Counted from the first letter of the stretch, positions 5,562 through 52,633 are shown. The stretch is 54,371 bases of DNA from a virus (IMGVR_UViG_3300007735_000756:1-54371); one strand, 5' to 3'. Made by a program: numbers and translations. The notes: generated by a model from the sequence alone, not told the origin.

Positions 5562-5773
5562 AAAGATTCTGGAAATTATGGGCCCAGAGTCTGGGCGAGA
5601 AAGTATCCAAATGTGATAAAGAAAGCGACACGGTAGCGATGATTCGCACCGTGATTTTTAGTACATATCTCATCACCAATCTCTTCATATGTGCTGGTGT
5701 GTCACGTCATTGGAATGATGTAACTCTGGGGCCTTCAAAGTGTTCCTATAGTGTAAGCACTCAAACCAAATGA
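5558..5773 (+). CDS. Small membrane protein (W++WA+SLGEK...D.VA.IRT)
   Basis: ORF with one TM helix; C-terminus reads through repeat copy 1. Confidence 0.65.
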   Translation: MKRFWKLWAQSLGEKVSKCDKESDTVAMIRTVIFSTYLITNLFICAGVSRHWNDVTLGPSKCSYSVSTQTK

Positions 5774-6229
5774 TAGAGTTTGACGACATTTCAATTGAAG
5801 AGTTCTCTCCTTTTGATTTTGTAGAGGAGATGAATGAATCTCCCGACAAAGAAGATTCATTCAAATTTGATGAATATCTAAAATCCAACATTGATTATTG
5901 ATTATGAATCCTGACACTTTTAATTTCACCGGTGATGCTGTTACCTATTTGGGTTTTGTTGGTGTGATCTCCACACTGATTATTCTTGTAACTGCTTTCA
6001 CTCGTTTCTACAAATCGCCCCTAAACAAATGACCGACACTGTAAACGTTCTGCCTCATCTCAAAGAACTTCGTGATTCTTGGAAGCAGCAAGATTTTCAA
6101 TTCACTAAGGAACAGCAGGAAAAATATGATATTCTGATTATTGCTCGTCAGGAACGAATAAAGTTCTTCAAAGAGAACGGACTTGTTTCAAAGGGTAGTA
6201 AAGTTGTTGATTCTCGTGAGGTAGATTAA
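5770..6229 (+). CDS. Cassette 1: 43-aa acidic peptide (5770-5901), 42-aa single-TM peptide (5904-6032), 66-aa protein (6029-6229)
   Basis: ORFs read manually after repeat 5722. Confidence 0.65.
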
Positions 6230-6262
6230 CACTAAATAATCAAAAGATACGTTCAGCAGCAA

Positions 6263-6859
6263 ATGAAAACCTTTCAAGAGTTTTATATGATTGCAGAGGC
6301 AACATATGACGCAAGTGTAATGAGTTCTTCTCAAATTAGAAAAACTGGAGAAGGTGGGCGTATTGGTGCTGAACGTAAGAAATCTGCTGCTGAAATACGT
6401 AGATTGAGGCAGGCAAAACCTGGAGAGGAAAGAAAACAAACAGAATATAAAGATCGTAAAGATATAGGTACTCAACGACAGGCAGATACAAGAGTACAAC
6501 AACCAACACAACCCCGTGATTCTGCTGCTGTAAGAGAAAGAGCAGCAGCAGCAGCGAGGGAAGAAAGAAGACAAGCAGCATTGGCAAGAAGATCTGGTAC
6601 AGATACACCAAAACCAAAACCAAAAGATTTGGTAAAAAGTGCATCAAAACTTTTAAGTAAAACTAAAACCCCCGAAGTAGATTTGAGACCTTCAGATCAA
6701 CCAAAGAGAGCAGTTGTTGGTATGTCAAGAGAGACAAGAAAGGATATTACTAGAAGAGGAAGTAGAAAACTTAGAGATTTAGTAATAAAGCATAGAGCAG
6801 AAAAGCAAGGAGTTGATCCATCTAAAATTACACTTTCACCAGACTATGATGTAAAATAA
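6263..6859 (+). CDS. Basic late protein with capsid-targeting-like N-terminus (probable internal head protein)
   Basis: MKTFQEFYMIAE; CTAAATA at ~6232; K/R-rich. Confidence 0.65.
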   Translation: MKTFQEFYMIAEATYDASVMSSSQIRKTGEGGRIGAERKKSAAEIRRLRQAKPGEERKQTEYKDRKDIGTQRQADTRVQQPTQPRDSAAVRERAAAAAREERRQAALARRSGTDTPKPKPKDLVKSASKLLSKTKTPEVDLRPSDQPKRAVVGMSRETRKDITRRGSRKLRDLVIKHRAEKQGVDPSKITLSPDYDVK

Positions 6860-6928
6860 ACTCTGGGGCCTTCAAAGTGTCCCTATAGTGTAAGCACTCA
6901 ACCCAACCAAATTCAACCAGACAAGATT

Positions 6929-7099
6929 ATGACTTCAAATCCTTATGTTGATCACTTGATTGAAAAGGGTTACACTGAGCAAGAGATTCGTCAGACTCGT
7001 GCTCCGAAGCGCACCTTCCCTTATACTATTGGGGCACGTACATATCAGACTGAAGAGGCATATCAATGGGCACTTAGTGAATTTCTAAACGGTATTTGA
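6929..7099 (+). CDS. Cassette gene, 56 aa
   Basis: Sole ORF between repeats 6859 and 7111. Confidence 0.7.
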   Translation: MTSNPYVDHLIEKGYTEQEIRQTRAPKRTFPYTIGARTYQTEEAYQWALSEFLNGI

Positions 7100-7164
7100 T
7101 AGGTAATAGTAACTCTGGGGCCTTCAAAGTGTCCCTATAGTGTAAGCACTCAACCCAACCTCAA

Positions 7165-7832
7165 ATGACCCGAATTGAGATTCAAAGAGCACTCTATGAT
7201 GCTCGCAAAGAATATGTAAAAGCACAAAAGCAAGTTGAGTTTCAAAAACGTGAAATCGCATTTCTAAATCAATGCTGGAAAGAATTTGATTTAGACCTTT
7301 ACTCTGAAATGTTTTCCTAAATTTTCATTATGAAATCCGTAACTATTCCCATCACAACTCTTGAGGCTCTGATTGAGTGTCTTGCAGATGCGATTAATGT
7401 TTGCTATAATGTAGATTCCAAATCCAAACGTTGTGAACTATCTTATCCTTATGCAGTAGGATATAGTCGTTCTGCAATGCTTCTAATTCAGGATCAACTT
7501 AAGAATCTGAAAACACAAAACTGATTATGACACTTTGGAGAGCAGAATGTTGGTTGGGTTCCAATGCGGGACGCCAAACACTTGAAGTAAACGCAAGTAC
7601 ACCTACAGGTGCAAAGGAACAACTGCAACGGGTTTATGGTGCAGAACATATAAGTAACATAAGAGAAGTTTCCAATCTTTCTACTGGTTTATCTGGTGAA
7701 GATATTGATGCAAAAATATGGTTAATTGCTATTATAGGGGTTCTTTATTTGGTTGTAACATATTGGTATGTTGCTATTCCAGTTAGTGTTATTCTTGGTA
7801 TTCTCATCTATATGGGAATGAAGGAAGATTAG
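7165..7832 (+). CDS. Cassette genes 7165-7320 (51 aa), 7330-7524 (64 aa), 7527-7832 (101 aa, C-terminal TM)
   Basis: Consecutive ORFs after repeat 7111. Confidence 0.7.
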
Positions 7833-7866
7833 AATAACTCTGGGTCCTTCAAAATGTTCTTATAGT

Positions 7867-9117
7867 ATGAATCTCAACTCAATGAACTTTCAACTTCGTC
7901 CTCATCAACTTCGTGGTGTTGATGCTATGTCCAAGCACGACAAAGGTCAACTCATAAAACCAACTGGAGCAGGAAAAACTCTTACTATGATTGCTGATGC
8001 ACTCAAAGAGTTTGCTAAAGAAACTCCACAGACCATTGTTGTTGTTGCACCACGTATTTTGCTTGCGGAGCAGTTATCCTGTGAGTTTTTGGAGTTTATC
8101 ACTAACGCACAAGTATTTCACTGCCACAGTGGAGAAACTCATCACGAAAGTTCTACTCGTCCTGCTGTGATTAGTCAGTGGGTTGAGAACAATAACTCTC
8201 ATCACAAGTTGATATTCACCACATACAATTCTCTTCAACGACTTGTTGATGCCGAGATTGATGTGAATACGATATTTTTTGATGAGGCACATAACAGCGT
8301 CAAACGTAACTTTTTTCCTGCAACGGAGCACTTCTCCGCAAATGCAAATCGTTGTTACTTCTTTACTGCAACCCGCAAGACTTCTGCGACTGTAGGTAAA
8401 CCAGGAATGAATGATTCTGAGGTTTATGGTAACATAATTTGTCGTGTTTCTGCACCAGAACTTGTTGATGGTGGGTATATTGTCCCACCCAAAGTTTTTA
8501 CACACCCATCTAAAACTACTGATGAATGTGGTGGGTGTTCTTATGAACGAGACAAGCACAATCTCATAGACATTATCAACACCTATGGAATGGATAAAGT
8601 ATTGATTGTATCCAAAAAGACTAAGGATATTATAGGTCTCACTACTCAAACTGATTTCCAACTCCAAATGGAACAATTGGGATATGAGGTTCTTCACATT
8701 TCCAGTAAGTTTGGTGCCTTTATCAACAATCAGAAAGTCAATCGTGAGGTATTTTTTGATACTCTCAATGCTTATGGTAAGGATGTGAACAAGAAGTTTG
8801 TTGTGCTGCATTTTGATATTCTTGCGGAAGGATTAAATATATCTTGCCTGAATGGTATTGTATTTCAGCGCAGTACAGATTACATCAAAATATTACAAAC
8901 TGTTGGTCGTGCTATTCGTCTTGATCCACGAGACAGTAAGGGTATGCAAGAGGGCACAATCACTCCCGGTGCCGTGAATACCTACAATAAGAAGTTTGGT
9001 CTCGTTGTTACTCCTGTGTTTGATAAGGTTGGTATCAGCACTGCCAAAAAAATTGAGGTTTGCCTTGATACTGTTTTTTCGAAAGGTGATATGTTAGATT
9101 CAGTGGTTCGCAGGTGA
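7867..9117 (+). CDS. Superfamily 2 DEAH-box helicase (ResIII-like)
   Basis: LRPHQ Q-motif, PTGAGKT, DEAH, TAT, ILAEGLN, QTVGRAIR; start may be 7867 or 7882. Confidence 0.9.
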   Translation: MNLNSMNFQLRPHQLRGVDAMSKHDKGQLIKPTGAGKTLTMIADALKEFAKETPQTIVVVAPRILLAEQLSCEFLEFITNAQVFHCHSGETHHESSTRPAVISQWVENNNSHHKLIFTTYNSLQRLVDAEIDVNTIFFDEAHNSVKRNFFPATEHFSANANRCYFFTATRKTSATVGKPGMNDSEVYGNIICRVSAPELVDGGYIVPPKVFTHPSKTTDECGGCSYERDKHNLIDIINTYGMDKVLIVSKKTKDIIGLTTQTDFQLQMEQLGYEVLHISSKFGAFINNQKVNREVFFDTLNAYGKDVNKKFVVLHFDILAEGLNISCLNGIVFQRSTDYIKILQTVGRAIRLDPRDSKGMQEGTITPGAVNTYNKKFGLVVTPVFDKVGISTAKKIEVCLDTVFSKGDMLDSVVRR

Positions 9118-9229
9118 GACCCAATGAGACCCTGGTCTACCACTAGAGCAAAACCTGATTTTTTGATGATTCTACCCTGAGAGCATGAAAGGTCATTTAC
9201 CACAAACGAAAACACCGATTTTTTGAAAA

Positions 9230-9659
9230 GTGACACAAATGCAAAAAGGATTTTTGATTGATAAGGGTGTCTATGCTTGTGTTTCCTCTGGTGGGCAGTT
9301 TATGATACTTTACGAGGGGCAACAGTTGAAGTTATGTCGGACAGAAAGTTCGGCAAGAAAGTATATCAACGAACACAAGAAAATCGGGAGTGTTGCACAA
9401 CTACCCATAGAATAAACTTTCCGGAACCTTCAAAATGTTCATGACCAAACAAAATCACAATTCTCTCCAAACTCAAATCAAAATGAATAAACAATTCCTA
9501 ATTGATATTACGTGCGAAACATTTATTGCTCGCACCAAATACTTTGCTCAACAGAATGATTTTTCCACAGTCGCAGCAATTTATTCTGAATGGATCGTTG
9601 ATGGGGTAGATCCAGAAAATGGAGAGTATGTATGGAGTTTTATTCCCATAATCATTTGA
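9230..9659 (+). CDS. Two small hypothetical proteins (9230-9415; 9435 or later start to 9659)
   Basis: Track ORFs separated by the truncated repeat at ~9415. Confidence 0.6.
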
Positions 9660-9690
9660 TGACATTAGAAATTGTATCTTGAGATAAATT

Positions 9691-10119
9691 ATGAAAACCA
9701 TTTTGCACAGTGGATACGGTTATCAAAAACTTCTCTGTGAGAATGTTACTTCTTGGTTTCTGAATAAGTTTCTTCCCCGACATAAAGTTGAGGTTGAAAT
9801 CTTACATCGTGGTCTCAAAAGAGAGGGGGTTTATGGTTGGTGCTCTGTTCAAGATTGTAACTGGAATCCCAGACATTTTCTGATTGAGATTCAAACTCAC
9901 CTAAATCAGGACGATTACATTATTTGTTTATTGCACGAACTACAGCACGTTTTACAACATGTTCGCGGAGATTTGAAAGATAAAGGCAACATTCGCTGTT
10001 GGAAAGGTATTGATTGTAGTGAAATGAAATATGATGAGATGCCATGGGAAATTGAGGCACATAAAAAAGAACAAGAACTTTATAAAGAGTATTTTATCCA
10101 TCTAAATTCTAATACCTAA
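9691..10119 (+). CDS. HEXXH zinc metallopeptidase-like protein
   Basis: LLHELQH ... PWEIEA. Confidence 0.75.
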   Translation: MKTILHSGYGYQKLLCENVTSWFLNKFLPRHKVEVEILHRGLKREGVYGWCSVQDCNWNPRHFLIEIQTHLNQDDYIICLLHELQHVLQHVRGDLKDKGNIRCWKGIDCSEMKYDEMPWEIEAHKKEQELYKEYFIHLNSNT

Positions 10120-10617
10120 ATGACTCCCGAACAAAAGTTACAACAACTGTTTGAAGAGATATATCAACTCTGCGACCAACAAGGTTGGGGTGACCCATTC
10201 TCATATGCTCGCTCTCGTGAGATACATCTTGCTTGTATTCTTGGGCATAAAGTAGCAAAAACCTATTCTGGTGCTGATGCTGTGGATGAAGAAGGTGAAT
10301 GTGAGTATAAATCTACCATTGCTAATTCTATCAATGCGACATATAATGGCATTAGTGTTCAAGATAATTGGGAAGAACAGGAGCGTTATTTAATTGAAGA
10401 AAAGATCGGTAAATACTCTAATCATTATATTGCTCGCTATGATGGTTGTAAAGTGGCAGAAGTGTGGAAACTGACTAGTGATAATGTATTGATGATTCTT
10501 CTTCCCAAACTCAAGAAAGATTGGGATCGTAAGATTCACGGTAAGTACAAAGATCCCCGCCTCTCTGGTAGTCTGTCCAAGAAAGAAATCTATCAATTTG
10601 GTAATCTTATTATATGA
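10120..10617 (+). CDS. Putative PD-(D/E)XK endonuclease
   Basis: RE...GADA....CEYKS; overlaps the MTase start. Confidence 0.55.
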   Translation: MTPEQKLQQLFEEIYQLCDQQGWGDPFSYARSREIHLACILGHKVAKTYSGADAVDEEGECEYKSTIANSINATYNGISVQDNWEEQERYLIEEKIGKYSNHYIARYDGCKVAEVWKLTSDNVLMILLPKLKKDWDRKIHGKYKDPRLSGSLSKKEIYQFGNLII

Positions 10618-11162
10618 CAATTGACTCTAAAAAGATTTTATATTCAAATGGTGGAGGAAATGAAGCGTATACTCCTGATTATGGTGTTACTCCAATTCTC
10701 AAATATATTCCCATAGATGCAAAGGTCTGGTGTCCATTTGATACAATTGATAGTGAGTTTGTCAAGCAGATTAGTCAGCAGAATGAAGTAGTCTTCACTC
10801 ATATTCAGTATAATCAGGACTTTCTCACCTATGAACCTGATAACTGGGATATAATTGTATCTAATCCACCATTCACAAACAAGCGTAAGTTCTTTGAGAG
10901 AGCATTATCATTTGACAAACCATTTGCATTGATTATGTCCAACACTTGGTTGAATGATAGTGCTCCAAAGCAGTTATTTAAGAACAAGGATTTGCAGTTG
11001 TTGATGTTTGATAAACGAATGAAGTTTCATAGTCCTGATGGTAGATCAAACGACAAGATTACGTTCAGTAGTAGTTACTATTGTTGGAACTTTCTACCCA
11101 AACAAATCATAATGGAAGAATTGCAAATAAATCAATCAAAAGCAAGACTTCCCGTTGATTAA
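10614..11162 (+). CDS. Small amino (N6-adenine-type) methyltransferase
   Basis: YTP, WCPFD, QDF, DIIVSNPPF motif IV. Confidence 0.85.
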   Translation: MTIDSKKILYSNGGGNEAYTPDYGVTPILKYIPIDAKVWCPFDTIDSEFVKQISQQNEVVFTHIQYNQDFLTYEPDNWDIIVSNPPFTNKRKFFERALSFDKPFALIMSNTWLNDSAPKQLFKNKDLQLLMFDKRMKFHSPDGRSNDKITFSSSYYCWNFLPKQIIMEELQINQSKARLPVD

Positions 11163-11191
11163 AACTCTGGGGCCTTCAAAGTGTCCCTATA

Positions 11192-11381
11192 GTGTCGGGG
11201 AGAGCACCAAAGTTCTGGTTCAGGTTTAAGTTTTTGATCAGACTTAAGTACTTGGTCCGGGCAATGGAATAATGCTCTTGGTAATTCGTCTCAAACAATT
11301 TAGTGCTTCACAAGGTACTAAAGAGAATGAGAATCCACTGTTGTGAGTGGTAGGATGGGGGTTCAAATCCCCCCCCGATGT
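11192..11381 (+). ncRNA. Candidate structured RNA with tRNA/tmRNA-like T-arm at its 3' end
   Basis: GGGGG-TTCAAAT-CCCCC; TCGGG/CCCGA closing stem; several internal hairpins; no ORF; fills a cassette slot. Confidence 0.6.
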
Positions 11382-11481
11382 ATTCTTGACCCATTGAATA
11401 GAGGGGTCTTTAAATATACTCTATTCTGGGGCCTTTAAAGTGTCCCTATAGTGTCACCACTCACTTTGTTCTTTCTTGATT

Positions 11482-11733
11482 ATGATTGTTTCTGAAGTAT
11501 TTCATTACACTACTTCCGGTTGGGATTGGCAAGATTGTAATATGAATCAGATGTGGATTGAAGAGATTGAGGAATCTCCTGATTGTTACAAATACGTTGC
11601 TGTTGCTTACAATCCTCGTAAGGATGTGAGGATTGTAATGTCTGAACCACGTTGCTATGCTGATACCCTAAATTGGATACGTAGTTGGTGTCGTACTTTC
11701 TGTATTCTTCCTGAGTTCTCTGTTGCTGTTTGA
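11482..11733 (+). CDS. Cassette gene, hypothetical
   Basis: Track ORF 11476..11733 after repeat 11422. Confidence 0.7.
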   Translation: MIVSEVFHYTTSGWDWQDCNMNQMWIEEIEESPDCYKYVAVAYNPRKDVRIVMSEPRCYADTLNWIRSWCRTFCILPEFSVAV

Positions 11734-11878
11734 TTATGACACCCACACAAGTTAATGGTAAGAAGGTTAATCGTGAGAACTTTTAGATCGACTTAATCAA
11801 TTGATTCAGAGTTACTAACTCTGGGGCCTTCAAAGTGTCCCTATAGTGTAACCACCAACCAACCAAAAGCAAAACCCA

Positions 11879-12482
11879 ATGTTTATTACCTGCCCTGTTT
11901 CTTTTGATTTGTGTGATGCCGAATGGTTTGATGATGTGGAGGATGCAAAGGATGATGCACTTAATTGGAGTGTAGAACTTCATGGTGAGAATGTAGTTGT
12001 ATATGAAGCAGTTGAGGATAATTGTGGATATAAGTTTAATCCATTATCGTCTATTTTTGCCTAGTTATCTTGCTATTTTTACCAATGAAAGTTCCAAACT
12101 GGGTTCATAACTCAGGAAAACAAAAGAATACTAAGGGCACTTGCAAAGGACAACTTAAAGCAAGAAAGCAAGCACTTCAAGCACTCAAAAACAAACTGAA
12201 CTTCAAATGACTTTCATGGAACTCTCACAAATTCTCACACTCTCTACTGCACACCTTCATCCTTTGGAAGGACAGAAGATTGATAAAGCTGCTTATATTG
12301 CTAGTGATACTTCTGCTCTGGTAACTACTGACCCAGGAATGTATGAGTTTTATATTGAAAAAAGTCTACCTTGTTTGGTAGAATTGCTGAAATTGGTTAA
12401 AGAACAACATGATGATGTTGCTTATGTTTTATTTGACCCTGATGCAAATGTAGATGATGCTTACAAATCTTATGATTGGTAA
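11879..12482 (+). CDS. Cassette genes 11879-12064, 12085-12210 (basic 41 aa), 12207-12482
   Basis: ORFs after repeat 11817; 12085-12210 read manually. Confidence 0.7.
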
Positions 12483-12485
12483 CCC

Positions 12486-12546
12486 TTGTGCCCAGTAATC
12501 GCACTGGCACATAACACCTCCAAAGGCACCTTTGCCGTGTTATGAT
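12486..12546 (+). promoter_or_regulatory. Early-promoter-like element TGTGCCCAGT-N6-ACTGGCACA ... TGTTATGAT
   Basis: Clear dyad plus extended -10, upstream of ATG 12589. Confidence 0.6.
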
Positions 12547-12588
12547 TACGGAGTAATCAACCAAAAGCAACCCCGTCAAAGAAACAAA

Positions 12589-12750
12589 ATGAACACTTTC
12601 ACCAGACCCTACAATCTTCACCGTCAATGGGTTGAGGATGACATGAAGGAGGATTATGGTTATGACAATCTTATCGCATTTAATGAGGCAGTTGCTAATG
12701 GTGATTTAATTATTGGTGCAGATGGGTACGCAAGACCTCCAGTTGATTAA
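12589..12750 (+). CDS. Small hypothetical protein
   Basis: Track ORF 12532..12750, likely ATG 12589. Confidence 0.65.
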   Translation: MNTFTRPYNLHRQWVEDDMKEDYGYDNLIAFNEAVANGDLIIGADGYARPPVD

Positions 12751-12781
12751 AACTCTGGGGCCTTCAAAGTGTCCCTATAGT

Positions 12782-13678
12782 ATGAAGAACACACACCTAG
12801 AACACCCTGAAGATGAGATTCTCACAGGTAACCTATCTGTGCTGAATTGGTTCACTGCAAAATCAAAGATTACCGTCAAAATTGATGGAAGTCCTGCAAT
12901 AGTTTTTGGTACAAACCCAGAGAACGGTAAGTTCTTCGTGGGCACCAAAAGTGTCTTCAATAAAGTCAAGATCAAAATCAACTATTCCGTAGAAGATATT
13001 ATTCGTAATCACGGTAATAATGTTCGTGTCTCAGAGATTCTGATTGCTTGCTTTCACAATCTACCACGTATCTCTGGTATTATTCAGGGAGACTTTATTG
13101 GTGCTGGTGGTTCCGATACATATTGCCCCAATACTATCACCTATAAGTTTCCAAAAGTAATCACTCAACCGATTATCTTTGCTCCTCATACAACCTATTC
13201 TGGGAGCAATCTTCGTGATTGTAGTGCATCCTTCGGTGCGAAAGTTCGTGCCTGTTCTACAGTCTTATGGGTGCGTCCTAGAGTGTATCTAACTGCGGAT
13301 CGTGAAGATATTCTTGACTTCTGTAACTTTGCCCGCCAGATGAGCACTTTGTGTGAATTTGTGTCTGAAAAAGAAGCAGTCAAAATCAAGAAAGAGATTA
13401 ACCTTTATATTCGTGAGAATCGTAAAGTTTGTGAGTATGAGATTGCCGAGAAGTATAATTGTGACAAAAACTTGATTCGGTTGTGGAAACTTGTGGAGAG
13501 CATAAAGATGGATTTGTTCTTCTACATTCGTGCCGATAAAAGTATTTATTGTGAGATTGATGGTCGCAGTAGTGATCACGAAGGATATGTTATTTCCAAT
13601 CGTTTTGGAACCTATAAAGTGGTGAATAGAGAAGAGTTTAGCAGACTCAACTTCACTCTGGAGAAGTCCTGGAGTTAA
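12782..13678 (+). CDS. Ligase/nucleotidyltransferase-superfamily protein (DUF6267-like)
   Basis: VKIDGS (motif I), QGDF, EGYV, YKVV; N-terminus MKNTHLEHPED. Confidence 0.7.
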   Translation: MKNTHLEHPEDEILTGNLSVLNWFTAKSKITVKIDGSPAIVFGTNPENGKFFVGTKSVFNKVKIKINYSVEDIIRNHGNNVRVSEILIACFHNLPRISGIIQGDFIGAGGSDTYCPNTITYKFPKVITQPIIFAPHTTYSGSNLRDCSASFGAKVRACSTVLWVRPRVYLTADREDILDFCNFARQMSTLCEFVSEKEAVKIKKEINLYIRENRKVCEYEIAEKYNCDKNLIRLWKLVESIKMDLFFYIRADKSIYCEIDGRSSDHEGYVISNRFGTYKVVNREEFSRLNFTLEKSWS

Positions 13679-13775
13679 TAACTCTGGGGCCTTCAAAGTG
13701 TCCCTATAGTGTAAGCACTTCAAATTCCAACATCACTGAAGTCTCACTACTTTCTTAACATTCAACTAAATCAAA

Positions 13776-14129
13776 ATGACTGCTACTTTTTCTGATTACG
13801 TTGCCACACAGGATGCTCGCAACACCATTCATCTTAACATCGTTAAGTATGGTCTGATTCTGTGTGATGCACTGAAGCAAACTGCACCAGATGGTTATGG
13901 TTTTGAACTGGAATCTTCTGGGCGTAAGTATCATAAGATCTTTTTGTGTATCAACGGCAAGCGTGATTCTATTCACGCTTTTATTGATAAGAAGACTGGT
14001 GATGTCTACAAACCAGCATCAATCAAAGCACCTGCCAAAGGTGTTAGATACAACCTGCGACTAATTAACGATAGGGAATGGTTATTTGCGAATGCCGACT
14101 GGAGCGGATCGTATCTTTATTCTCGTTGA
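13776..14129 (+). CDS. Phage hypothetical protein (HAFIDK.TGDVYKPAS..APAK)
   Basis: Sole ORF in its cassette. Confidence 0.85.
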   Translation: MTATFSDYVATQDARNTIHLNIVKYGLILCDALKQTAPDGYGFELESSGRKYHKIFLCINGKRDSIHAFIDKKTGDVYKPASIKAPAKGVRYNLRLINDREWLFANADWSGSYLYSR

Positions 14130-14201
14130 TTAAAACTCTGGGGCCTTCAAAGTGTCCCTATAGTGTAAGGTTCAAACCTTTCAAACCACCAAATCTCAAA
14201 A

Positions 14202-14489
14202 ATGGCACAAACACTTCATCCATTCACTTCTTCTACTTCAGGTCTTGGTTACAATGTAGTTTCCAGTGAAATCTCAAGGATTGCTGTTGTTTCAAACGAC
14301 ACAGGAACTTATGATCTATTGGTAATTTTTCACAGCAATGTGGATAAAGTTTACCGATACATTTTTGAAGATGCTGGTGCTGCAATTCGTTTCATTAATC
14401 TTCTTGAAGATGATGTTGCCAGAGCAGAAACATCTTGGGGTTATGAGTTTAATCGGGCCCTAAAGCATGGTGATATTGAAATCGTTTGA
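14202..14489 (+). CDS. KTSC-like domain protein
   Basis: VSSEI.RI.....LLVIFHS...VYRY pattern. Confidence 0.5.
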   Translation: MAQTLHPFTSSTSGLGYNVVSSEISRIAVVSNDTGTYDLLVIFHSNVDKVYRYIFEDAGAAIRFINLLEDDVARAETSWGYEFNRALKHGDIEIV

Positions 14490-14500
14490 TTTTATACACA

Positions 14501-14531
14501 AAGAGGGGTGCTTTATGTGCCCCTCTTATTC
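14501..14531 (+). terminator. Hairpin AAGAGGGGTGC-TTTAT-GTGCCCCTCTT
   Basis: Strong stem after a stop codon, followed by T-rich sequence. Confidence 0.6.
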
Positions 14532-14552
14532 TTCCAAACTCTTTTAATTCTT

Positions 14553-14616
14553 TACCAGAAGTTGGGATGAAAAGTATCTTCAACAGGTAATGATTCCTAT
14601 TACTGTGTGTGCATAG
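14553..14616 (+). pseudogene. Orphan 3' fragment of a paralog of 14975..15379
   Basis: TRSWDEKYLQQVMIPITVCA* versus TKSWSETYLQQVEIPITVCA*. Confidence 0.85.
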
Positions 14617-14685
14617 GTAATCATAACCTGGGGCCTTCAAAGTGTCTCTATAGTGTAAGGCACTCAAACATTCAACCAAATCAAA

Positions 14686-15379
14686 ATGACACTCACCACT
14701 CAAACAATTCAAGAGTTCTTCACAGAAAATGAATGGGATATGATCTACAACTTCATCGGAAATGCTCTGGACAATGATGATTATGAGCGTGAAGATGTTT
14801 ATGCGATTCGTGCTAAAATTCACAATCTCTTTCTTTCACAATGAACACTCCAAACTGGAAACATAACTCTGGTAAGTCTAAACGAACCAAGGGCATGTGT
14901 AAGGGGCAAATTGTTGCTCGCAAACAAGCACTTAAAGCACTCAAACTCAAACTCAAGTAACATCCTTCAAAATCATGTCAACTCGTTCCCGCATCGGTCT
15001 ACAACTCTCAGATGGTTCTATATTATCTTCCTATCATCATTATGATGGTTATCCCGAATGGTTGGGACGTATTCTAACTACTCACTACAATTCAAAATCT
15101 CTTGCTGAAGAATTGATTGATGGTGGTGATATGACTTCCTGTTGGACAGATGAACGTTGGGATGATAGTGGTGTGAAGGGTGTTTATGGTCCTCAATATT
15201 ACTCTGCTCGTGGTGAAGATGTTCCACCTAGTCTTGATAATACTCTTGATGAGTATCTAAAACATAGTGAAGATTATTCTTATCTTTATCGTAATGGTGA
15301 ATGGGTATGTTATGATACTAAAAGTTGGAGTGAAACATATCTTCAACAAGTAGAAATTCCTATTACTGTGTGTGCATAG
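14686..15379 (+). CDS. Cassette genes 14686-14844 (52 aa), 14841-14960 (basic 39 aa), 14975-15379 (MSTRSRIG...HYDGYP type)
   Basis: ORFs after repeat 14625. Confidence 0.75.
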
Positions 15380-15453
15380 GTAATAGTAACTCTGGGGCCT
15401 TCAAAGTGTTCCTATAGTGTAAGCACTTCTCAACCACTTCACTCAAACCAAAA

Positions 15454-15873
15454 ATGCAACTTTCTGTCCGCTGCTCTTCTGCCCCTTGGGAGAACGAAAC
15501 CACTGATGAAGATCGTGCTATTGATCTGGCATATTCTCTCTCTGAAGAATACTCCTGTGATGTTCATTTAGTATACACTTCAACTGGTACTATTCACTCT
15601 GTTGTTTCTAACTACTAATCGATTATGAAACTCTACATTCTCAAAGAAGTTCTTTATGATTACACTTCTGGAATGTGTATCATCGCAGCAGAATCTATGC
15701 CTCAGTGTGAACAGATCTTTATGCAAGAGTTCGGGTATTTTACTGATTGCAATGGTGAACGTGTGAAAGATGAAGAGATGCAAAAACAGTTCAACAATGC
15801 CCAAGTCACTATCATCGAATCTGTAGGACTTGATGAAGCAGGTATTGTAGAATATGTTTATGGTGGAGGTTGA
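15454..15873 (+). CDS. Cassette genes 15454-15618 (54 aa) and 15625-15873 (82 aa)
   Basis: ORFs between repeats 15388 and 15889. Confidence 0.7.
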
Positions 15874-15941
15874 ATCATAAGAGTTAATAACTCTGGGGCC
15901 TTCAAAGTGTCCCTATAGTGTAAGCACTCACTCAAACTCAA

Positions 15942-16735
15942 ATGACCGACACTCAAACTCAAATGACCGAACAATCTTACTCCTTCAGGGGTATCTTCAC
16001 TGACAAAAACTACTCTACTCGCCTTGGTTACATGGCACCAACTGCACAAGATGCTTGGAATGGTATCGCAAAGCAGCATCCTACTTTCCTAGTTCAAAAC
16101 TGGGGACTTGAGGGTCAAGTTGACTAAAACTATTTTTCATTTATTAACATCTAAACTCAAACCAAACAAAATGACTGCAACTTTCACGATTAAGTATCAA
16201 GTTCCTTATCCATCAGTTGGACTCATTGAAGAATGGAGAACGCAAACATTTTCCACTCGTAATGAAGCAGAAAGAATGATAAAGTTCTATCGTTCCTGTG
16301 GTTCACCTGCAAAGATGATTTAGTTTAGTAAAGTATCAATCACAAAGAGGTTATTATGAACACTTTTGCAATTGTGACTCCAAAAAGTAATAAGGCAAAG
16401 AACAGATTTGCCAATCTTATGGATAAGAATCAAACTTGTATTGTTGAACAAATTAAGGACAATCTTGTGTTCTTACGTTCATTGAATGGCAAGAACTTTT
16501 TCTGGGTAAATCTTCTTAACGATTCTGATTGGAGCATTAAACTATGAAAAATCAAGATCAACTTATTCGTTCAATAGAACAAAGAATTGAAGATCTTTCC
16601 TTTATTGATGAAGAACTTGCATATCAATTTGAGTGTGATTTGTATTACGAAACAGATGGTGATGACGTGCCTATTGTTGAACTTTTCAATCAAGAACTTT
16701 TAGATGAACTTGATCAATTGATTCAGAGTTACTAA
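15942..16735 (+). CDS. Cassette genes 15942-16127, 16171-16323, 16356-16547, 16544-16735
   Basis: ORFs between repeats 15889 and 16734. Confidence 0.7.
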
Positions 16736-16787
16736 CTCTGGGGCCTTCAAAGTGTCCCTATAGTGTAAGCACTCAACCAACCTTCTA

Positions 16788-16976
16788 ATGACTAAAACAC
16801 AGATCAACGAAGCAATCGCTCAGGAATTCCTGAATCTTTCTACTCTCAACGAGTCGCTTTATGATTATTGGATCAATAATCTTTATACTGTTAATGGTGA
16901 ATTCATTGAGGATTCATGGAATGAATCCAATCTGAAAAAGATGAAAGATGATGTAATTTTTAACTCTGAATCTTGA
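16788..16976 (+). CDS. Cassette gene, 62 aa
   Basis: Sole ORF between repeats 16734 and 16992. Confidence 0.75.
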   Translation: MTKTQINEAIAQEFLNLSTLNESLYDYWINNLYTVNGEFIEDSWNESNLKKMKDDVIFNSES

Positions 16977-17044
16977 ATCATAAGAGTTATTAACTCTGGG
17001 GCCTTTAAAGTGTCCCTATAGTGTAACCACCAACTCAACTTCCA

Positions 17045-17377
17045 ATGACCACCTTTACCACCTTTCCTTTCCGAAAAACAATGAGCATCAATGACCTGTT
17101 TGATTCTATCAAACTCACTGAGTCTTTAGCACTTGAAAACTATCAGCAACGTAATGGAGTTGTTGATTATCGTTTAGATGGAGTTTGTAATCATTACTTC
17201 CCAGTCTGGAATGATAAAGAACCGTCATTTAAAACTGGTGAGATAGTGCTCACATGTAAGGTATCTAAAACAGTCAAGGGTCAGTTACGTTACAACTTTC
17301 TTATCAATGGTAAGAGAGTTGCAGAGAAGATGATTCCTTCAACATTCTTATCATTGGGTGCCTTTTGGAGTAAGTAA
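17045..17377 (+). CDS. Cassette gene, hypothetical
   Basis: 110-aa ORF after repeat 16992. Confidence 0.75.
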   Translation: MTTFTTFPFRKTMSINDLFDSIKLTESLALENYQQRNGVVDYRLDGVCNHYFPVWNDKEPSFKTGEIVLTCKVSKTVKGQLRYNFLINGKRVAEKMIPSTFLSLGAFWSK

Positions 17378-17466
17378 GATCTAAAGAGAGGAAGGAGTTT
17401 TTTGCCTCTATAAACAAAGTGACTCTGTAAAGTATGAATAATTCTTTAAAAGGTGGTTGGGTGAAT

Positions 17467-17506
17467 AAAGAGAGAGAGGACTGGTAATCCTTTCTCTCTT
17501 TTTTTT
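17467..17506. terminator. Probable bidirectional intrinsic terminator
   Basis: AAAGAGAGAGAGGA-loop-TCCTTTCTCTCTTTTTTT between convergent genes. Confidence 0.8.
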
Positions 17507-18008
17507 ATGTCAATAAACGACGTAATCCATATTGCATAATATAACTTTCTAGTGAGTTTTCAATGATAGAATTGATGAAGGTGTTTGTATCAGGAACTGG
17601 TAATCCTTTTCTTATTGATGCTGTATAAACCTGTTTCACTCTCTTTGCAAGAAAGTCATCTAATACGTAACCATCAAACTCTTTCTGTATCTTATCAGTC
17701 TTCCATTCTAAGTTCTCAAGTCTGTTATCACTTAAGTCACCATTCTTGTGTATTACAGATCTTGAAATGTCATCAGTTGGAATGAATGCTAATGCTAATA
17801 ATCTATGAATCACGAAGTTCTTCAGATTGCCGTATCTATCAGTAAGTCTTACAAACTTACATTGTCTTGTCTTAGACTTCCAACCGGGAGAAAGTATCTT
17901 TGATTTATTATGTCTAAAACTCCATACATTTCCTTCGGTGTCTATACCATACTCAGTGAAGTCTTTAAGTAATTCAACTTTAGATAAGTTGACGATTCTG
18001 CTCTCCAT
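17505..18008 (-). CDS. NUMOD4-HNH homing-endonuclease-like protein
   Basis: YGIDTEGNVWS, IHRLLALAFIP, HKNGDLSDNRLENLEW; only convincing minus-strand gene. Confidence 0.8.
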   Translation of the reverse strand: MESRIVNLSKVELLKDFTEYGIDTEGNVWSFRHNKSKILSPGWKSKTRQCKFVRLTDRYGNLKNFVIHRLLALAFIPTDDISRSVIHKNGDLSDNRLENLEWKTDKIQKEFDGYVLDDFLAKRVKQVYTASIRKGLPVPDTNTFINSIIENSLESYIMQYGLRRLLT

Positions 18009-18143
18009 ATCTTTGAATTGTTTTTCCTGTTCATTTTATGTATGGGAAAAGAGTTTTCCACAGGTTGAATTTAAAGATTGAATTATTATTAGTTAAACTT
18101 GAATTTTAGTGTATTACAAATCTTAATAGGTGATGAATAAAGA

Positions 18144-18268
18144 GTCTTATTAAATGCTGAATAGGGTTCTTAAGAATCTTTATTAAACCTTATTAAATGC
18201 TGAATAAAGGTCTTATTAAGTGTTGAATAGGGTTCTTAAGAATCTTTATTAAACCTTATTAAATGCTG
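18144..18268. repeat. AT-rich ~66-bp tandem duplication built from CTTATTAAATGCTG sub-repeats
   Basis: Units start at 18144 and 18210. Confidence 0.9.
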
Positions 18269-18289
18269 GATCTTATAGTTATCTAAGCG

Positions 18290-18318
18290 AGCATACACCA
18301 AGAATCATAAATTGTCAA
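18290..18318 (-). promoter_or_regulatory. Sigma70-type promoter TTGACA-N17-TATGCT (minus strand)
   Basis: TGTCAA at 18313-18318 and AGCATA at 18290-18295. Confidence 0.7.
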
Positions 18319-18360
18319 GAATAAAGTTGCAAATCTCCACAAAAGTTCCCCCCAGGACCT

Positions 18361-18400
18361 CATAAACACTCATAAACACTCACAAACACTCATAAATACC
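18361..18400 (+). repeat. Four 10-bp tandem repeats (CATAAACACT)
   Basis: cataaacact cataaacact cacaaacact cataaatacc. Confidence 0.9.
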
Positions 18401-18410
18401 CTCAACCTAC

Positions 18411-18439
18411 TTGACACCTATTGTAGGTCATTGTAGACT
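18411..18439 (+). promoter_or_regulatory. Sigma70-type promoter TTGACA-N17-TAGACT
   Basis: Exact -35, 17-bp spacer, AAGGAG RBS downstream. Confidence 0.75.
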
Positions 18440-18468
18440 AGTCACATACATTAAGGAGCATCATTCTC

Positions 18469-18642
18469 ATGTCGGTATCTTATCTTCAGGGACAAAAGCA
18501 ACGTTTTCGTGTTACATTAGAACTTGACGTTTTGAATGACTTTGATCCACACAATATGGAATGGGAGAGGATTTTTGACCTAGAACCGAATGAGAAAGTA
18601 TCGGCATATGTAGAGGATCTCGATGTACCTGTGCGCTGGTAA
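18469..18642 (+). CDS. 57-aa hypothetical protein (RVTLELDV..DFDPH..EW)
   Basis: ORF read manually, with promoter, RBS and terminator. Confidence 0.8.
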   Translation: MSVSYLQGQKQRFRVTLELDVLNDFDPHNMEWERIFDLEPNEKVSAYVEDLDVPVRW

Positions 18643-18658
18643 TCTATGAAGTGATAAT

Positions 18659-18693
18659 ACCTGTGAAGTAATAGTATTTCACAGGTTTATTTT
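18659..18693 (+). terminator. Intrinsic terminator
   Basis: ACCTGTGAAGTA-ATAG-TATTTCACAGGT-TTATTTT. Confidence 0.75.
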
Positions 18694-19161
18694 GTATAAA
18701 TAAACATATCAGATTAAGAGTTCTGAATTGTTTCATTCTAAAGTATAATTCTTTCCCATAAAAGCACAATAGCCGGTTAACCCGCGTGAGGTAAGACTTT
18801 TAAGAGTGGATATAAAGAATTCCCTACTTTCTTTGAGCACTTAAGAATCATTAACTGATACATTCTATTTGAATACATTTCAGGCAAAACTGGTTTAACG
18901 CAAGGTTTCCTAAGGCGCCGCACAAAAAGTATATTCAAATATAGCACAATTAAGAATAACAAAAACAGGGATGGTTCCTAATAGAATTAGATTTTAATTC
19001 TATTACTTAGGGGTCAATTTATAGTGTCTAGATGTATTAAGTTCTTATTAAGTTCTTATTAAGTGATGAATTAAGTATCTGATCATAACCTATAAGTATC
19101 TGATCATAACTCTGGGGCCTTTAAAGTGTCCCTATAGTGTAAGCACTCAACCAAGCTTCCA

Positions 19162-19374
19162 ATGGTTATTATCTACACTAAGGCGGCCGCCAATGGCGAA
19201 TTTGATGGAGTCGGCATGGATAGTCAGCGTATCAGTCGCGAATATAAAACAACTCGAGGATTCCTTCAGCACGGTCTTCCTAATAACTTTAGGGGGACAA
19301 CATTAAGATTGGAGATATATTATGGGGACAATATTTATCGGGCTCCGGATAAAGTTACGTACATTGTGACATGA
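19162..19374 (+). CDS. Cassette gene, 70 aa
   Basis: Sole ORF after repeat 19108. Confidence 0.75.
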   Translation: MVIIYTKAAANGEFDGVGMDSQRISREYKTTRGFLQHGLPNNFRGTTLRLEIYYGDNIYRAPDKVTYIVT

Positions 19375-19494
19375 CAGATCTGACCCATTGAATGGATGGG
19401 TCATTAAATATACTCTATTCTGGTTATCTTAACTTAAGATAACTCTGGGGCCTTTAAAGTGTCCCTATAGTGTAAGCACTCAACCAAGCTTCCA

Positions 19495-19740
19495 ATGACC
19501 TACAATCCTTGCAAAGATGCTGCCACCCTTGAACACTTTGCAAGGTGGGAGATGCACTCTAAAACTCTAGATATGTACTCCTTAAAGTATATAATCAACG
19601 ATTGCAAGTCTGCTGCTGAGAATATGAAGGGTTGGAATCCAATCCGAGAGGGTTACTATCTGGACCAGGCAGCAACTTATGGGATGGAAGTAACACGTAG
19701 GAATGCGCAATTGCCCTTTGGTTTACGTCATAGAGTATAG
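19495..19740 (+). CDS. Cassette gene, 81 aa
   Basis: Sole ORF after repeat 19441; leader identical to that of 19162. Confidence 0.75.
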   Translation: MTYNPCKDAATLEHFARWEMHSKTLDMYSLKYIINDCKSAAENMKGWNPIREGYYLDQAATYGMEVTRRNAQLPFGLRHRV

Positions 19741-19865
19741 TACTAAGTAACGTTGACCCATTGAATAGGGGGGTCATTAAATATTCTCTATTCCGGTTAT
19801 CTTAAGTTAAGATAACTCTGGGGCCTTTAAAGTGCCCCTATAGTGTAACCACCGCCCAAACCAAG

Positions 19866-20156
19866 ATGACCACCGCAACCTATCAATTGAATTCCCTTAA
19901 TATCTCCTACAATGGTTGGGAGAATTATGAAACCTGGAATGTTGCTCTCTGGATTCAAAATGATGAGTTTCTCTATAACACAGCCAAAGCATGTGTAGAG
20001 TTCTGCAATGATAACGAAACACCTTATGATAAGTTCGTTCGTTGCATGACTGAGGGACAGATTGGTCGTCATCTTGTTAGCACTCCGGACGGTGTTTCTT
20101 ATAACAATCCTAAAATCAATCACCTGGAAGTCAACGAAATGATTCAAGATCTTTGA
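19866..20156 (+). CDS. Cassette gene (YNGW.NYETWNVALW type)
   Basis: 96-aa ORF after repeat 19814. Confidence 0.8.
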   Translation: MTTATYQLNSLNISYNGWENYETWNVALWIQNDEFLYNTAKACVEFCNDNETPYDKFVRCMTEGQIGRHLVSTPDGVSYNNPKINHLEVNEMIQDL

Positions 20157-20174
20157 GTCGTTAACACAAACAGT

Positions 20175-20346
20175 CCTGAGTTATGACTATAAACTAACTC
20201 CGTGAATTAGGGCACAATCACGTTAATCATGCCCAGGTAGATAAGTAATGCGATCTACCGTGAATGGCAGTGATACACGTCACAACTCTGCCAAACTATG
20301 TACCCTCTGGTTGACACTGGGGGGCACTACAGTGAGTGAAACTCAC
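20175..20346 (+). ncRNA. Candidate structured RNA (tandem pseudoknots and hairpins)
   Basis: Crossed pairs AGTC/GACT with GAGTT/AACTC, CGTGA/TCACG with GGGCA/TGCCC; GGTAGAT/ATCTACC; TGGCAG/CTGCCA; GTGAG/CTCAC. Confidence 0.5.
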
Positions 20347-20489
20347 CAGTGGAATGGTGTAACACCCGACCCAACGGGAGTAGGGGTCATTAAATATACT
20401 CTATTCTGAGAATTCTGAGGTAATCATAACTCTGGGGCCTTTAAAGTGTCCCTATAGTGTAAGCACTCAACCAACTCAACTTTCCTCCC

Positions 20490-20837
20490 ATGCGTAAGAT
20501 TGAAACCGCAATGATTGAAGCAATTGAGAATCAACTCAATTGGAAGTCTGCTAACACTGAAGTGATTAACTCTGAACTGGCAAGTGATGGAACTGTTGTC
20601 AGTGTAGTTAAACTTCACGGGCATAAGATTGCCGTGATCGGCGACAACTTTATTCAACTATTCGATGGTGGTTGGCAGACTGCTACCACCAAAAGTAGGT
20701 TGAATGCAATACTCAAAGGGTTCGGAATTGCGGGAGAAGGTGTATTTCAAAAGGCAGGGGAATGGTTCGTACGTATTCATGAAGATTTTAAAGTTGACTT
20801 TGAAGTTGTTAAATTCACCAGTGGAATGGTGATCTAA
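20490..20837 (+). CDS. Cassette gene (MRKIE...GGWQTATTKSRLNA type)
   Basis: 115-aa ORF after the last repeat. Confidence 0.8.
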   Translation: MRKIETAMIEAIENQLNWKSANTEVINSELASDGTVVSVVKLHGHKIAVIGDNFIQLFDGGWQTATTKSRLNAILKGFGIAGEGVFQKAGEWFVRIHEDFKVDFEVVKFTSGMVI

Positions 20838-21541
20838 GGTAATACCCGACCCAACGGGAGTAGGGGTCATTAAATATACTCCTCCCAGAGTTTAAGTAAC
20901 AGTGTGTCACTTAAGTGACAGTGAGTGGCACACTTTTAGTGAGTTGTATAAAGAACCCGTTTCGTGAGTTGTATAAAGAACTCGTAGTGTATTAGAATTA
21001 AACAGTGAGTTCTTATCAGTAATATCGTGTTCGTGGTTAATTGTTTATACTTAGTTAAATGTAAAGAATTAAACAGTGCTGTTTGACAGTTATTATTAAT
21101 TCGTGGTTGTTAATAATGGCGGGTAATGCGCCCCCGTATATTATTTTTTTGGGTCCCTACAACCTACAGAGGTGACAAATCGACCGATAAATATCAATCT
21201 CATAAAAAATTTCCGGAGTATGAAAAAACATCCCACAAGGTTTAATGGATATTATATTACTGAGAATGAAAAAGTTTATCATGAACCAAATAAATGTTTT
21301 GACGGTAAAAATAAAAAAGATTTGGTAGAAGTTCAGCAATTGAATAATAGATAAAAGTATGATGAGCACCCTTAGAAATCTCCGCCGAACTCCTTACTGG
21401 AACTTCTGGAAGGTTGTACTTGCAGGTTGGTGTATAAGATATCCAAAACAAATAATATTCATTCCTCTTGGATTTTTATTGATCTTGATATATAATCTTG
21501 TTGCGAAATAATTCTCAACAAAAAATTTTTGCCATAAAAAA

Positions 21542-21742
21542 ATGTCTTATAAAGAAAAAATATACCACATATATGCAAAGGACCGATGTCTATTTCATTC
21601 TATCAAAGAAGAAGAATTTAATACAACCTGGTCAACACTTAAGATTATGGTTGGTCTGATGAAAACAGACTATACTATAGAAGACTTGTCATATGAAGAA
21701 CTTACCTTCAATAAAGATTTGACACTTCATTCTTCTCATTGA
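21542..21742 (+). CDS. Hypothetical protein
   Basis: 66-aa ORF. Confidence 0.65.
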   Translation: MSYKEKIYHIYAKDRCLFHSIKEEEFNTTWSTLKIMVGLMKTDYTIEDLSYEELTFNKDLTLHSSH

Positions 21743-21767
21743 CAATGCATATATAAACTGTTAAAAT
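21739..21767 (+). promoter_or_regulatory. Sigma70-type promoter TTGACA-N17-TAAAAT with extended TG
   Basis: Upstream of ATG 21792. Confidence 0.75.
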
Positions 21768-50970: not shown

Positions 50971-51017
50971 TATAAATATATATTATATTATTGAATATCA
51001 ATAGAGAGTTTATAAAA

Positions 51018-52466: not shown

Positions 52467-52633
52467 CGAATTGAGAGGAAATACCAAAGTATATTAGTAA
52501 TATACTTTAATTTGGATGGTGTCACTGAAAATGTTCACCTTCTCAAAATTCTTATATCTTTATCATCAATAACTTTTAAAATAGTTAGAACATCAATTAA
52601 TTTATAAATATCTTTACGGCAATCAAATGTTAA

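Follow-up and report, generated by a model that had tools for sequence, protein, structure and literature searches.

The viral DNA stretch IMGVR_UViG_3300007735_000756, whose full 54,371 nucleotides (nt) we refer to as the window, contains a region of small genes that is partitioned by about 20 copies of one ~36-bp element, all in the same orientation. We found that this element is conserved in relatives, that it is restricted to this one region, and that the ends of the homology blocks shared by related genomes are enriched at its copies. The reading that we favor, and hold to be probable, is that the element is a promoter of the -10 type, one for each cassette of genes, whose copies double as homology patches for cassette exchange. 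The repeat itself and its distribution are direct observations, whereas activity as a promoter, expression early in infection, the precise position of the start, and the way in which cassettes recombine are predictions made from sequence.

The window belongs to a T4-like phage, in line with an earlier note made from its letters alone, which had drawn a comparison with T4-type phages. Pfam matches include gp6, gp8, the neck protein, and gp15 of T4-type tails, and the gp15 protein is 64-66% identical to that of the Synechococcus phages SynMITS9220M01, S-SM2, and Bellamy. Because of these tail proteins and of the gp15 identity, we assign the window to a T4-like cyanomyovirus, of which it is a fragment. 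Two giant open reading frames (ORFs) of 4010 and 2808 codons, in which only YHYH, baseplate, and DUF4815 domains were recognized, adjoin the T4-type tail genes. The record comprises nothing beyond the window; it is an IMG/VR contig for which CheckV gives a completeness of 25, i.e., ~25% of a genome, and the DNA runs that contain it are labeled mostly as freshwater or viral metagenomes. The array lies in a small-gene region 5' of the gp25-gp6-gp7 baseplate genes, a location that is alike in S-SM2, SynMITS9220M01, and Syn9.

The element forms an array in one orientation

In a repeat search, a 52-nt family (19 copies) and a 21-nt family (20 copies) were picked up between 5701 and 20458, every copy being direct. 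The 28-mer CTGGGGCCTTYAAAGTGTCCCTATAGTG has 18 matches, each with 0-1 mismatch and all on the + strand, while none of 100 shuffled sequences contained any match; in a search of the whole record, there were 18 forward and 0 reverse matches to this 28-mer, with 0 and 0 for a control pattern. A profile derived from the copies recovered 19 of them in the window, the one at 7839 being weak, and missed the one at 9420, which is too degenerate. All the copies are on the gene strand, between 5725 and 20466 (Table 1). Thirteen of the 20 start 1-21 nt past the stop codon of the preceding ORF (for the copy at 12754, this distance was measured from ORF 12589-12750), and downstream of each copy come a C/A-rich leader and then 0-4 small ORFs on the + strand. 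The array is thus as the earlier note had described it, i.e., a same-orientation element in about 20 copies that is often close to the previous stop codon and is followed by a C/A-rich leader and small ORFs, with the number of ORFs per copy now set at 0-4.

The ninth position of the element is a T (GGGGCCTTT) in the last five copies (16995-20431) and in the copy at 11425, and a C in the others. Since the T variant clusters in the last five copies, neighboring copies are alike.

The element is conserved in relatives and has two parts

An exact 25-mer of the element was found in 40 other IMG/VR contigs, always in arrays of one orientation, and a profile search of the window together with these 40 loci gave 250 matches, all on the gene strand. 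The 3' core of the element, AAAGYGTCCCTATAGT, occurs in at least 613 copies in at least 150 loci, including the cultured phages S-SM2 and SynMITS9220M01. Among the matches listed, the core lies strictly on the gene strand in 150/150 loci, and no locus carries it on both strands. S-SM2 has 11 copies of a AAGGGGGGTCGCCTAAAGCGTCCCTATAGTGTAAGCAC-like sequence in its syntenic region and SynMITS9220M01 has 12 copies of TTACTCACCTCTAAAGTGTCCCTATAGT. When searched with the core pattern, S-SM2 shows 10 of its 13 forward matches within 42.7-57.1 kb of a 190-kb genome, and SynMITS9220M01 all 10 of its forward matches within 36.3-50.0 kb. The element is therefore clustered in a hyperplastic region between conserved modules, at 5.7-20.5 kb in the window and likewise in these two phages.

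The 9 nt upstream of the core come in at least 12 types, which include GGGGCCTTC, GTAACCTCT, GGGACGTGT, and GGGCCCCTG. Within a contig they are rather uniform, the majority type making up 87% of the copies on average (93 contigs with at least three copies, among the matches listed). Because the core crosses genera while the 5' half is so diverse between contigs and so uniform within them, we consider that the element is bipartite, with a core common to cyanomyovirus genera and a 5' half that is uniform in a genome but lineage-specific. Such uniformity would fit either recombinational homogenization or co-evolution with a lineage-specific factor.

In Syn9 and ACG-2014f, the same genomic place is occupied by longer, different repeats, ending with CTATAAG and CTATACT, respectively, which have only the CTATA box in common with the element and are followed by a start codon 17-28 nt downstream. 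In Syn9 (L051), this different repeat lies at 6303-6368, 8572-8629, 11014-11079, and 13010-13075, while the core has no forward match in that phage even with 3 mismatches allowed. The repeat of ACG-2014f (L055) is intergenic, ~75-105 nt long, and present in 16 copies between 3312 and 18207; it contains TGTGACAG, GTGGCACAAG, a G/C-rich hairpin (with a T-run in some copies), and CTATACT, and by these letters it looks more like a true promoter-terminator composite.

The core has the letters of a -10 box

Positions 0-24 of the element hardly vary among 205 unique copies, and conservation decays past position 32. The letters TAnnnT are kept almost throughout (T21 in 201/205, A22 in 199/205, and T26 in 199/205), and they are followed by C30 in 149/205 and A31 in 180/205, at about the distance expected of a start site. 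TATAGT, or the overlapping TAGTRT, thus has the TAnnnT form of a -10 box. The T4-type late motif TATAAATA was found at 50971, before gp15, and at 52603, before the ORF at 52634, and it was not found in front of the cassettes. Since this motif precedes structural genes and not the cassettes, the latter would be under a promoter class other than late. The conserved TAnnnT, the single orientation, the position just upstream of genes, and the distinction from late promoters all agree with the earlier note, which had taken the element for a promoter, and we likewise predict that it is promoter-like.

Homology between relatives often ends at the element

In gene-order maps of 40 relatives, cassettes are kept while their order changes: w13-w16, w25-w26, and x39-x41 are intact, while their order and neighbors vary. 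Relatives fill the interval from the helicase cassette to the DUF6267 gene in at least nine different ways, and the DUF6267 gene, which was followed in 25 loci, has at least 10 named left-neighbor families, with homology starting within a few nucleotides of the 5' edge of the element. We then compared all loci against each other (238 locus pairs), using as homology blocks the high-scoring segment pairs (HSPs) with at least 80% identity over at least 200 nt. As many as 160 of the 329 unique left block ends fall within -20 to +5 of the element, where 1.9% are expected, and 121 of the 325 unique right block ends fall at +15 to +60, where 3.4% are expected. There are 1.46 block ends per junction with an element versus 0.36 at plain gene junctions, a fourfold difference, and at least one block end is found at 137/221 element-bearing junctions versus 139/566 plain ones, with an odds ratio of 5.0. 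Neighbor conservation is 0.50 across the element versus 0.67 at plain junctions, a modest difference with p values of 0.03 and 0.02 that overstate the support, because the junction instances, here as in the count of block ends per junction, come from related contigs and are non-independent. The ORFs in this neighbor test were crude (ATG starts, at least 30 codons), and families with fewer than three instances or with 25-75% element-linked junctions were dropped. A first blastn count of HSP ends against the window alone was confounded by divergence, with 37/170 starts at plain junctions, and was replaced by the all-against-all comparison.

Three copies of the element are preceded by duplicated 3' remnants of genes from elsewhere in the array (Table 1). 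Taken together, these findings uphold part of what the earlier note had proposed for rearrangement at the repeats: gene order is not kept and block ends are enriched at the element, but the breakpoints are not exact and about half of them lie elsewhere.

Contigs from four DNA runs stop at element copies, as short-read assembly does at repeats longer than 31 nt. Contig joints such as 6896 to 12755 or 15937 to 19866 were discarded as evidence of rearrangement, their sides being 27-54 nt long, with which an arbitrary placement of the repeat is possible. In contigs from three runs, each of a different study, 12560 is connected back to 11873, with as many as nine extra letters in between; this joint has no element at its bounds and might reflect a 688-nt segment in tandem or circular form.

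Proposed mechanism and points against it

In the mechanism that we propose, the hyperplastic small-gene region would be split into ~20 transcription cassettes, each headed by one ~36-bp bipartite regulatory element made of a lineage-specific 5' half (here GGGGCCTTY) and of the core AAAGTGTCCCTATAGT common to cyanomyovirus genera. The TAnnnT in this core (TATAGT or the overlapping TAGTRT) would serve as a -10 box for the host RNA polymerase without a -35 box, transcription would start ~5-9 nt downstream, near a conserved CAC, and the remainder of the element might provide a site for specificity or for an activator. Since every cassette is preceded by the same 30-40 bp, the copies could act as homology patches at which, judging from the relatives, the general recombination of the phage would delete, insert, replace, and reorder cassettes. 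A cassette that has moved would still be expressed because it brings its promoter along or meets one. In a bolder version, which we regard as doubtful, the element would be a two-part early promoter with the core for the host polymerase and the 9-nt 5' half for a co-evolving factor delivered by the phage, exchange at the core making the array a recombinase-free "promoter integron." If this were true, protein genes, a restriction-modification-like pair, and a structured RNA would move between lake and ocean lineages.

Several observations weigh against a -10-type promoter whose copies promote cassette exchange. There is no match to the -35 consensus, the letters 17 nt upstream of the -10 being CTCTGG/CTGGGG, and the -35 region is the part that varies between lineages. 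A scan with the sigma-70 consensus, which gave 59 matches versus 61.2 expected, lists no element copy on the + strand. In 108/203 unique copies, an ATG directly follows TATAGT, and in 103 of these 108 it opens an ORF of at least 30 codons; of the 95 copies without an abutting ATG, only 34 have that frame open. A second in-frame ATG lies 5-10 codons downstream in 65/103, there is none within 20 codons in 26/103, and several DUF6267 genes, whose products begin with MKNTHLEHPED, have the abutting ATG as the lone nearby start. Similarly, the closing stem of a structured RNA candidate begins 2 nt past TATAGT. If transcription starts downstream of TAnnnT, the abutting ORFs and this RNA could therefore be expressed only via read-through from upstream cassettes, a plausible route given that terminators are lacking between most cassettes. 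If the start is at the ATG or upstream of it, an unusual polymerase, or an unusual mode of recognition, would be needed. With regard to exchange, besides the non-independence of the junction instances, of the 654 unique block ends, 202 fall at plain junctions and another 130 are found elsewhere, and w25 is joined to w24 at the ATG of w25 without an element in the window. Moreover, part of the enrichment could come from selection that keeps transcription units intact, with the repeat itself playing no mechanistic part.

Alternative explanations

The earlier note had pictured the array as integron-like and had noticed an imperfect dyad in the element. The GGGGC...GYCCC dyad is indeed present in the letters, but neither a stable nor a conserved fold goes with it. 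Folding of the element is on a par with that of shuffled sequence (z of -0.9 and -0.7), and the pairing ranges from ~2/6 positions in copies with a 5' half of the CTCACC type to ~6/6 in the GGGACG type, with no compensating changes in the core across 5'-half types; in sister lineages that have the 3' core, only 2-3/6 positions pair. Since folding is at the level of shuffled sequence and pairing is not kept between lineages, the dyad is probably incidental, with no conserved structure, and the element as a hairpin was ruled out on the same grounds. The integron picture calls for a site-specific recombinase, but searches of the window and of three complete genomes that carry arrays of this kind revealed no tyrosine or serine recombinase: tyrosine recombinases (PF00589) gave 0 matches in the window, S-SM2, SynMITS9220M01, and ACG-2014f, with positive controls in 14/14 genomes, and serine recombinases (PF00239) gave 0 matches in the same four records, with positive controls in 12/14, the search covering the ~25% of its genome that is in the window and the whole of the other three. 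It follows from the lack of a recombinase in these records and from the behavior of the dyad that the array is very probably not an integron but a variant of the modular shuffling seen with promoter-early stem-loop (PeSL) cassettes. The dual role of promoter and recombination site that the earlier note had given to the element thus survives in the PeSL sense, with promoter-like letters and enriched block ends, and not as an integron-like mechanism. That an attC-type site is nevertheless used by a dedicated recombinase, which would excise cassettes as circles, is very improbable: one-orientation sites do bound the cassettes and many homology-block ends do fall at the element, but each cassette has its own promoter-like element instead of sharing one promoter, remnants of foreign genes lie beside three copies, and many junctions are away from the element. 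Hardly credible is a selfish short repeat, MITE-like or a homing target, with no regulatory role and with exchange driven by an HNH endonuclease. An HNH ORF does lie inside the array and the 5' halves are homogeneous within a genome, but the element has no terminal inverted repeat and no target duplication, keeps to the gene strand in all the loci among the matches listed and to a fixed position relative to start codons, and its core is conserved across genera without the HNH gene, e.g., in L013.

Two other explanations bear on the abutting start codons. The element might act in RNA, as a processing or stabilizing site plus translation-initiation region in a polycistronic transcript, and not be a promoter at all. 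The in-frame abutting ATG (103/108), which is a lone nearby start in 26/103, the structured RNA that closes its stem so soon after TATAGT, and the 13/20 copies that lie 1-21 nt after an upstream stop codon would all be accounted for. We nonetheless find it unlikely, since folding is no better than shuffled, dyad pairing drifts from 2 to 6 of 6 between lineages without compensating changes, and the best-conserved letters are TAnnnT followed by CA, with promoter-like spacing; furthermore, the CTATACT and CTATAAG boxes of ACG-2014f and Syn9 are 17-28 nt before the ATG, with a purine-rich stretch between. Alternatively, the element could be the promoter of a non-sigma-70 polymerase, whether phage-encoded, delivered with the virion, or a modified host enzyme, with transcription starting in or after CTATAG and yielding near-leaderless mRNAs. 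Conservation over more than 30 bp without a -35 box would suit such an enzyme, as would functional features that begin right after TATAGT, and the letters CTATAG may resemble the start region of T7-group promoters; the early element of T4-like cyanophages is also reportedly called "novel" by Doron et al. 2016. We rate this as rather improbable. PF00940 had 0 matches in the window, S-SM2, and Syn9, which is weak evidence because the control genomes also gave 0, and the giant ORFs show only the domains named above. We know of no T4-like cyanophage that encodes a single-subunit polymerase of the T7 group. The -10-type promoter read by the host polymerase, with its copies serving cassette exchange, is hence the explanation that we retain.

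Cargo, a second repeat, and neighboring features

A minority of the cargo could be named: with Pfam and PHROGs, a helicase, a DUF6267 protein, and a restriction-modification-like pair whose matches are sub-threshold, and, besides these, a structured RNA. The restriction-modification-like pair consists of two adjacent ORFs within 10120-11162 (+), with sub-threshold matches to a PvuII-type endonuclease (22 bits, for a cut-off of 25) and to methyltransferase families. It moves jointly as an element-flanked cassette in L022, L031-L033, and L040. The cassette without an ORF contains, at 11193-11382 (+), an RNA candidate with a folding energy of -67.9 kcal/mol (z of -4.0) and a closing stem. Its T-arm-like hairpin, GGGGGUUCAAAUCCCCC, gives a local match to the transfer-messenger RNA (tmRNA) model with an E value of 0.0036, far under the gathering score. 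ARAGORN found no tRNA or tmRNA in the window, and Rfam found nothing there at gathering thresholds.

A second repeat family is present in the array, with four copies just upstream of an element copy and a fifth that closes the array (Table 1); it is a candidate for a terminator or another signal. A strong terminator-like hairpin is located at 17467-17501 (fold z of -4.6), after ORF 17045-17377. The free-standing HNH homing-endonuclease ORF is the only mobility gene in the array. Tandem repeats of 66 nt (two units) and 10 nt (four units) lie beside it, at 18144-18271 and 18359-18398, and the segment that holds it measures 859 nt in the window versus 226 nt in L013. The best sigma-70-type match of the region, at 21739-21767 (+), has TTGACA, a 17-nt spacer, and TAAAAT with a TG; it is just upstream of a conserved ORF, 21792-22559, directly past the end of the array.

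Table 1. Element copies and associated features of the array (window coordinates)
Feature	Position	Strand	Remarks
Element copy 1, GTTCC variant	5725-5760	+	Cassette of 4 small ORFs, 5770-6859
Element copy 2	6862-6897	+	1 ORF, 6929-7099
Element copy 3	7114-7149	+	3 ORFs, 7165-7832
Element copy 4, weak	7839-7874	+	30.6 bits; TATAGT directly before ATG of helicase ORF 7867-9117
Very degenerate copy, 5' half only, without TATAGT	9420-9455	+	From repeat search (D4 family); ahead of ORFs 9435-11162
Element copy	11166-11201	+	ORF-less cassette with structured RNA candidate
Element copy, T variant	11425-11460	+	Hairpin module upstream; 1 ORF, 11482-11733
Element copy	11820-11855	+	4 ORFs, 11879-12750
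Element copy	12754-12789	+	TATAGT directly before ATG (12782) of DUF6267 gene 12782-13678
Element copy	13683-13718	+	1 ORF, 13776-14129, DUF7717
Element copy	14137-14172	+	1 ORF, 14202-14489
Element copy	14627-14662	+	3 ORFs, 14686-15379
Element copy	15391-15426	+	2 ORFs, 15454-15873
Element copy	15892-15927	+	4 ORFs, 15942-16735
Element copy	16737-16772	+	1 ORF, 16788-16976
Element copy, T variant	16995-17030	+	ORF 17045-17377, then terminator-like hairpin
Element copy, T variant	19111-19146	+	1 ORF, 19162-19374
Element copy, T variant	19444-19479	+	Hairpin module upstream; 1 ORF, 19495-19740
Element copy, T variant, GCCCC	19817-19852	+	Hairpin module upstream; 2 ORFs, 19866-20409
Last element copy	20431-20466	+	Hairpin module upstream; ORF 20490-20837, Kyano_Gp96 family
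Duplicated remnant, 44 nt	11776-11819		Upstream of copy 11820; 3' end of ORF 16544-16735 (D3, 95% over 80 nt)
Duplicated remnant, 24 nt	12730-12753		Upstream of copy 12754; 3' end of ORF 10614-11162 (D1, 96% over 52 nt)
Duplicated remnant, 75 nt	14553-14627		Upstream of copy 14627; 3' end of ORF 14975-15379 (D10, 84%)
Second repeat family, hairpin GACCC..GGGTC plus WTTAAATATWCTC	11388-11421	+	5 matches versus 0.01 expected
Second repeat copies, all five	11404-11421, 19398-19415, 19771-19788, 20384-20401, 20864-20881	+	
HNH homing-endonuclease ORF, free-standing	17505-18008	-	Inside array; not in relative L013

Significance and comparison with known systems

In T4-like cyanophages, most of the unknown genes reside in hyperplastic regions, where gene gain and loss are poorly understood. 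The array described here is a dense and quantifiable case, with hundreds of element copies and a breakpoint enrichment of about four- to fivefold. What is new, besides such a case in cyanophages, is the bipartite architecture of the element and the start codons that abut it. The core motif could be used as a marker of the early accessory-gene region in cyanophage metagenome contigs, and the cultured S-SM2 and SynMITS9220M01 allow tests both of early transcription without a -35 box and of cassette exchange driven by promoter homology.

Doron et al. 2016 (ISME J 10:1437) are said to have described a novel element that reportedly drives the early genes of T4-like cyanophages and is conserved both in their genomes and in metagenomes. 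Since the syntenic region of Syn9 (gp55-gp93) has an analogous repeat, the one that ends with CTATAAG, we infer by way of this synteny that the element studied here may be the same. Both are non-canonical repeats upstream of small genes; of the element studied here, we count 11 copies in S-SM2 and 12 in SynMITS9220M01. The work of Doron et al. is not known to assign its element a role in cassette exchange.

The array is like an integron in being one-directional, in consisting of small cassettes bounded by a repeated site, and in the high turnover of its cargo. It differs in that no integrase was found in the records searched, there is no attC-type fold or shared promoter, and the junctions are imprecise. 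T4 middle promoters, as passages of PMC4122927 describe them, also combine a -10 box with a conserved upstream box, the MotA box, in place of a -35. The upstream box of our element, however, does not have the MotA sequence, and MotA and AsiA are stated to be absent from T4-like cyanophages in a passage of PMC5780444.

The closest parallel is with the PeSL cassettes of the T4-type phages RB49/phi1, T4/PST, and KVP40/nt-1 (Arbiol et al. 2010, PMC2839356; Comeau et al. 2014, PMC4122927). In passages of these two papers, PeSLs are presented as conserved cassettes of hyperplastic regions in coliphages and vibriophages, which pair a promoter with a terminator-like stem-loop, are sites for homologous recombination, and form mini-circles; for the cyanophage S-PM2, a passage of PMC4503421 judges them too sparse to explain gene gain. 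The passages on PeSLs give them sigma-70-like -35/-10 pairs, while our element has no -35 box. The element is also distinguished by its bipartite structure with a lineage-specific 5' half and by its cyanobacterial host. Furthermore, a hairpin module is found beside only four copies. A general stem-loop upstream of the element was rejected, as the 55 nt before it fold like background in 19/19 copies (mean of -8.06 kcal/mol versus -7.92 for background, with 0/19 beyond the 5th percentile). What the two systems have in common is a conserved regulatory repeat before small accessory genes, clustered between the conserved modules of a T4-like genome, with copies that lie beside insertions, deletions, replacements, and displaced ORFs between relatives, and homologous recombination between the copies as the proposed mechanism.

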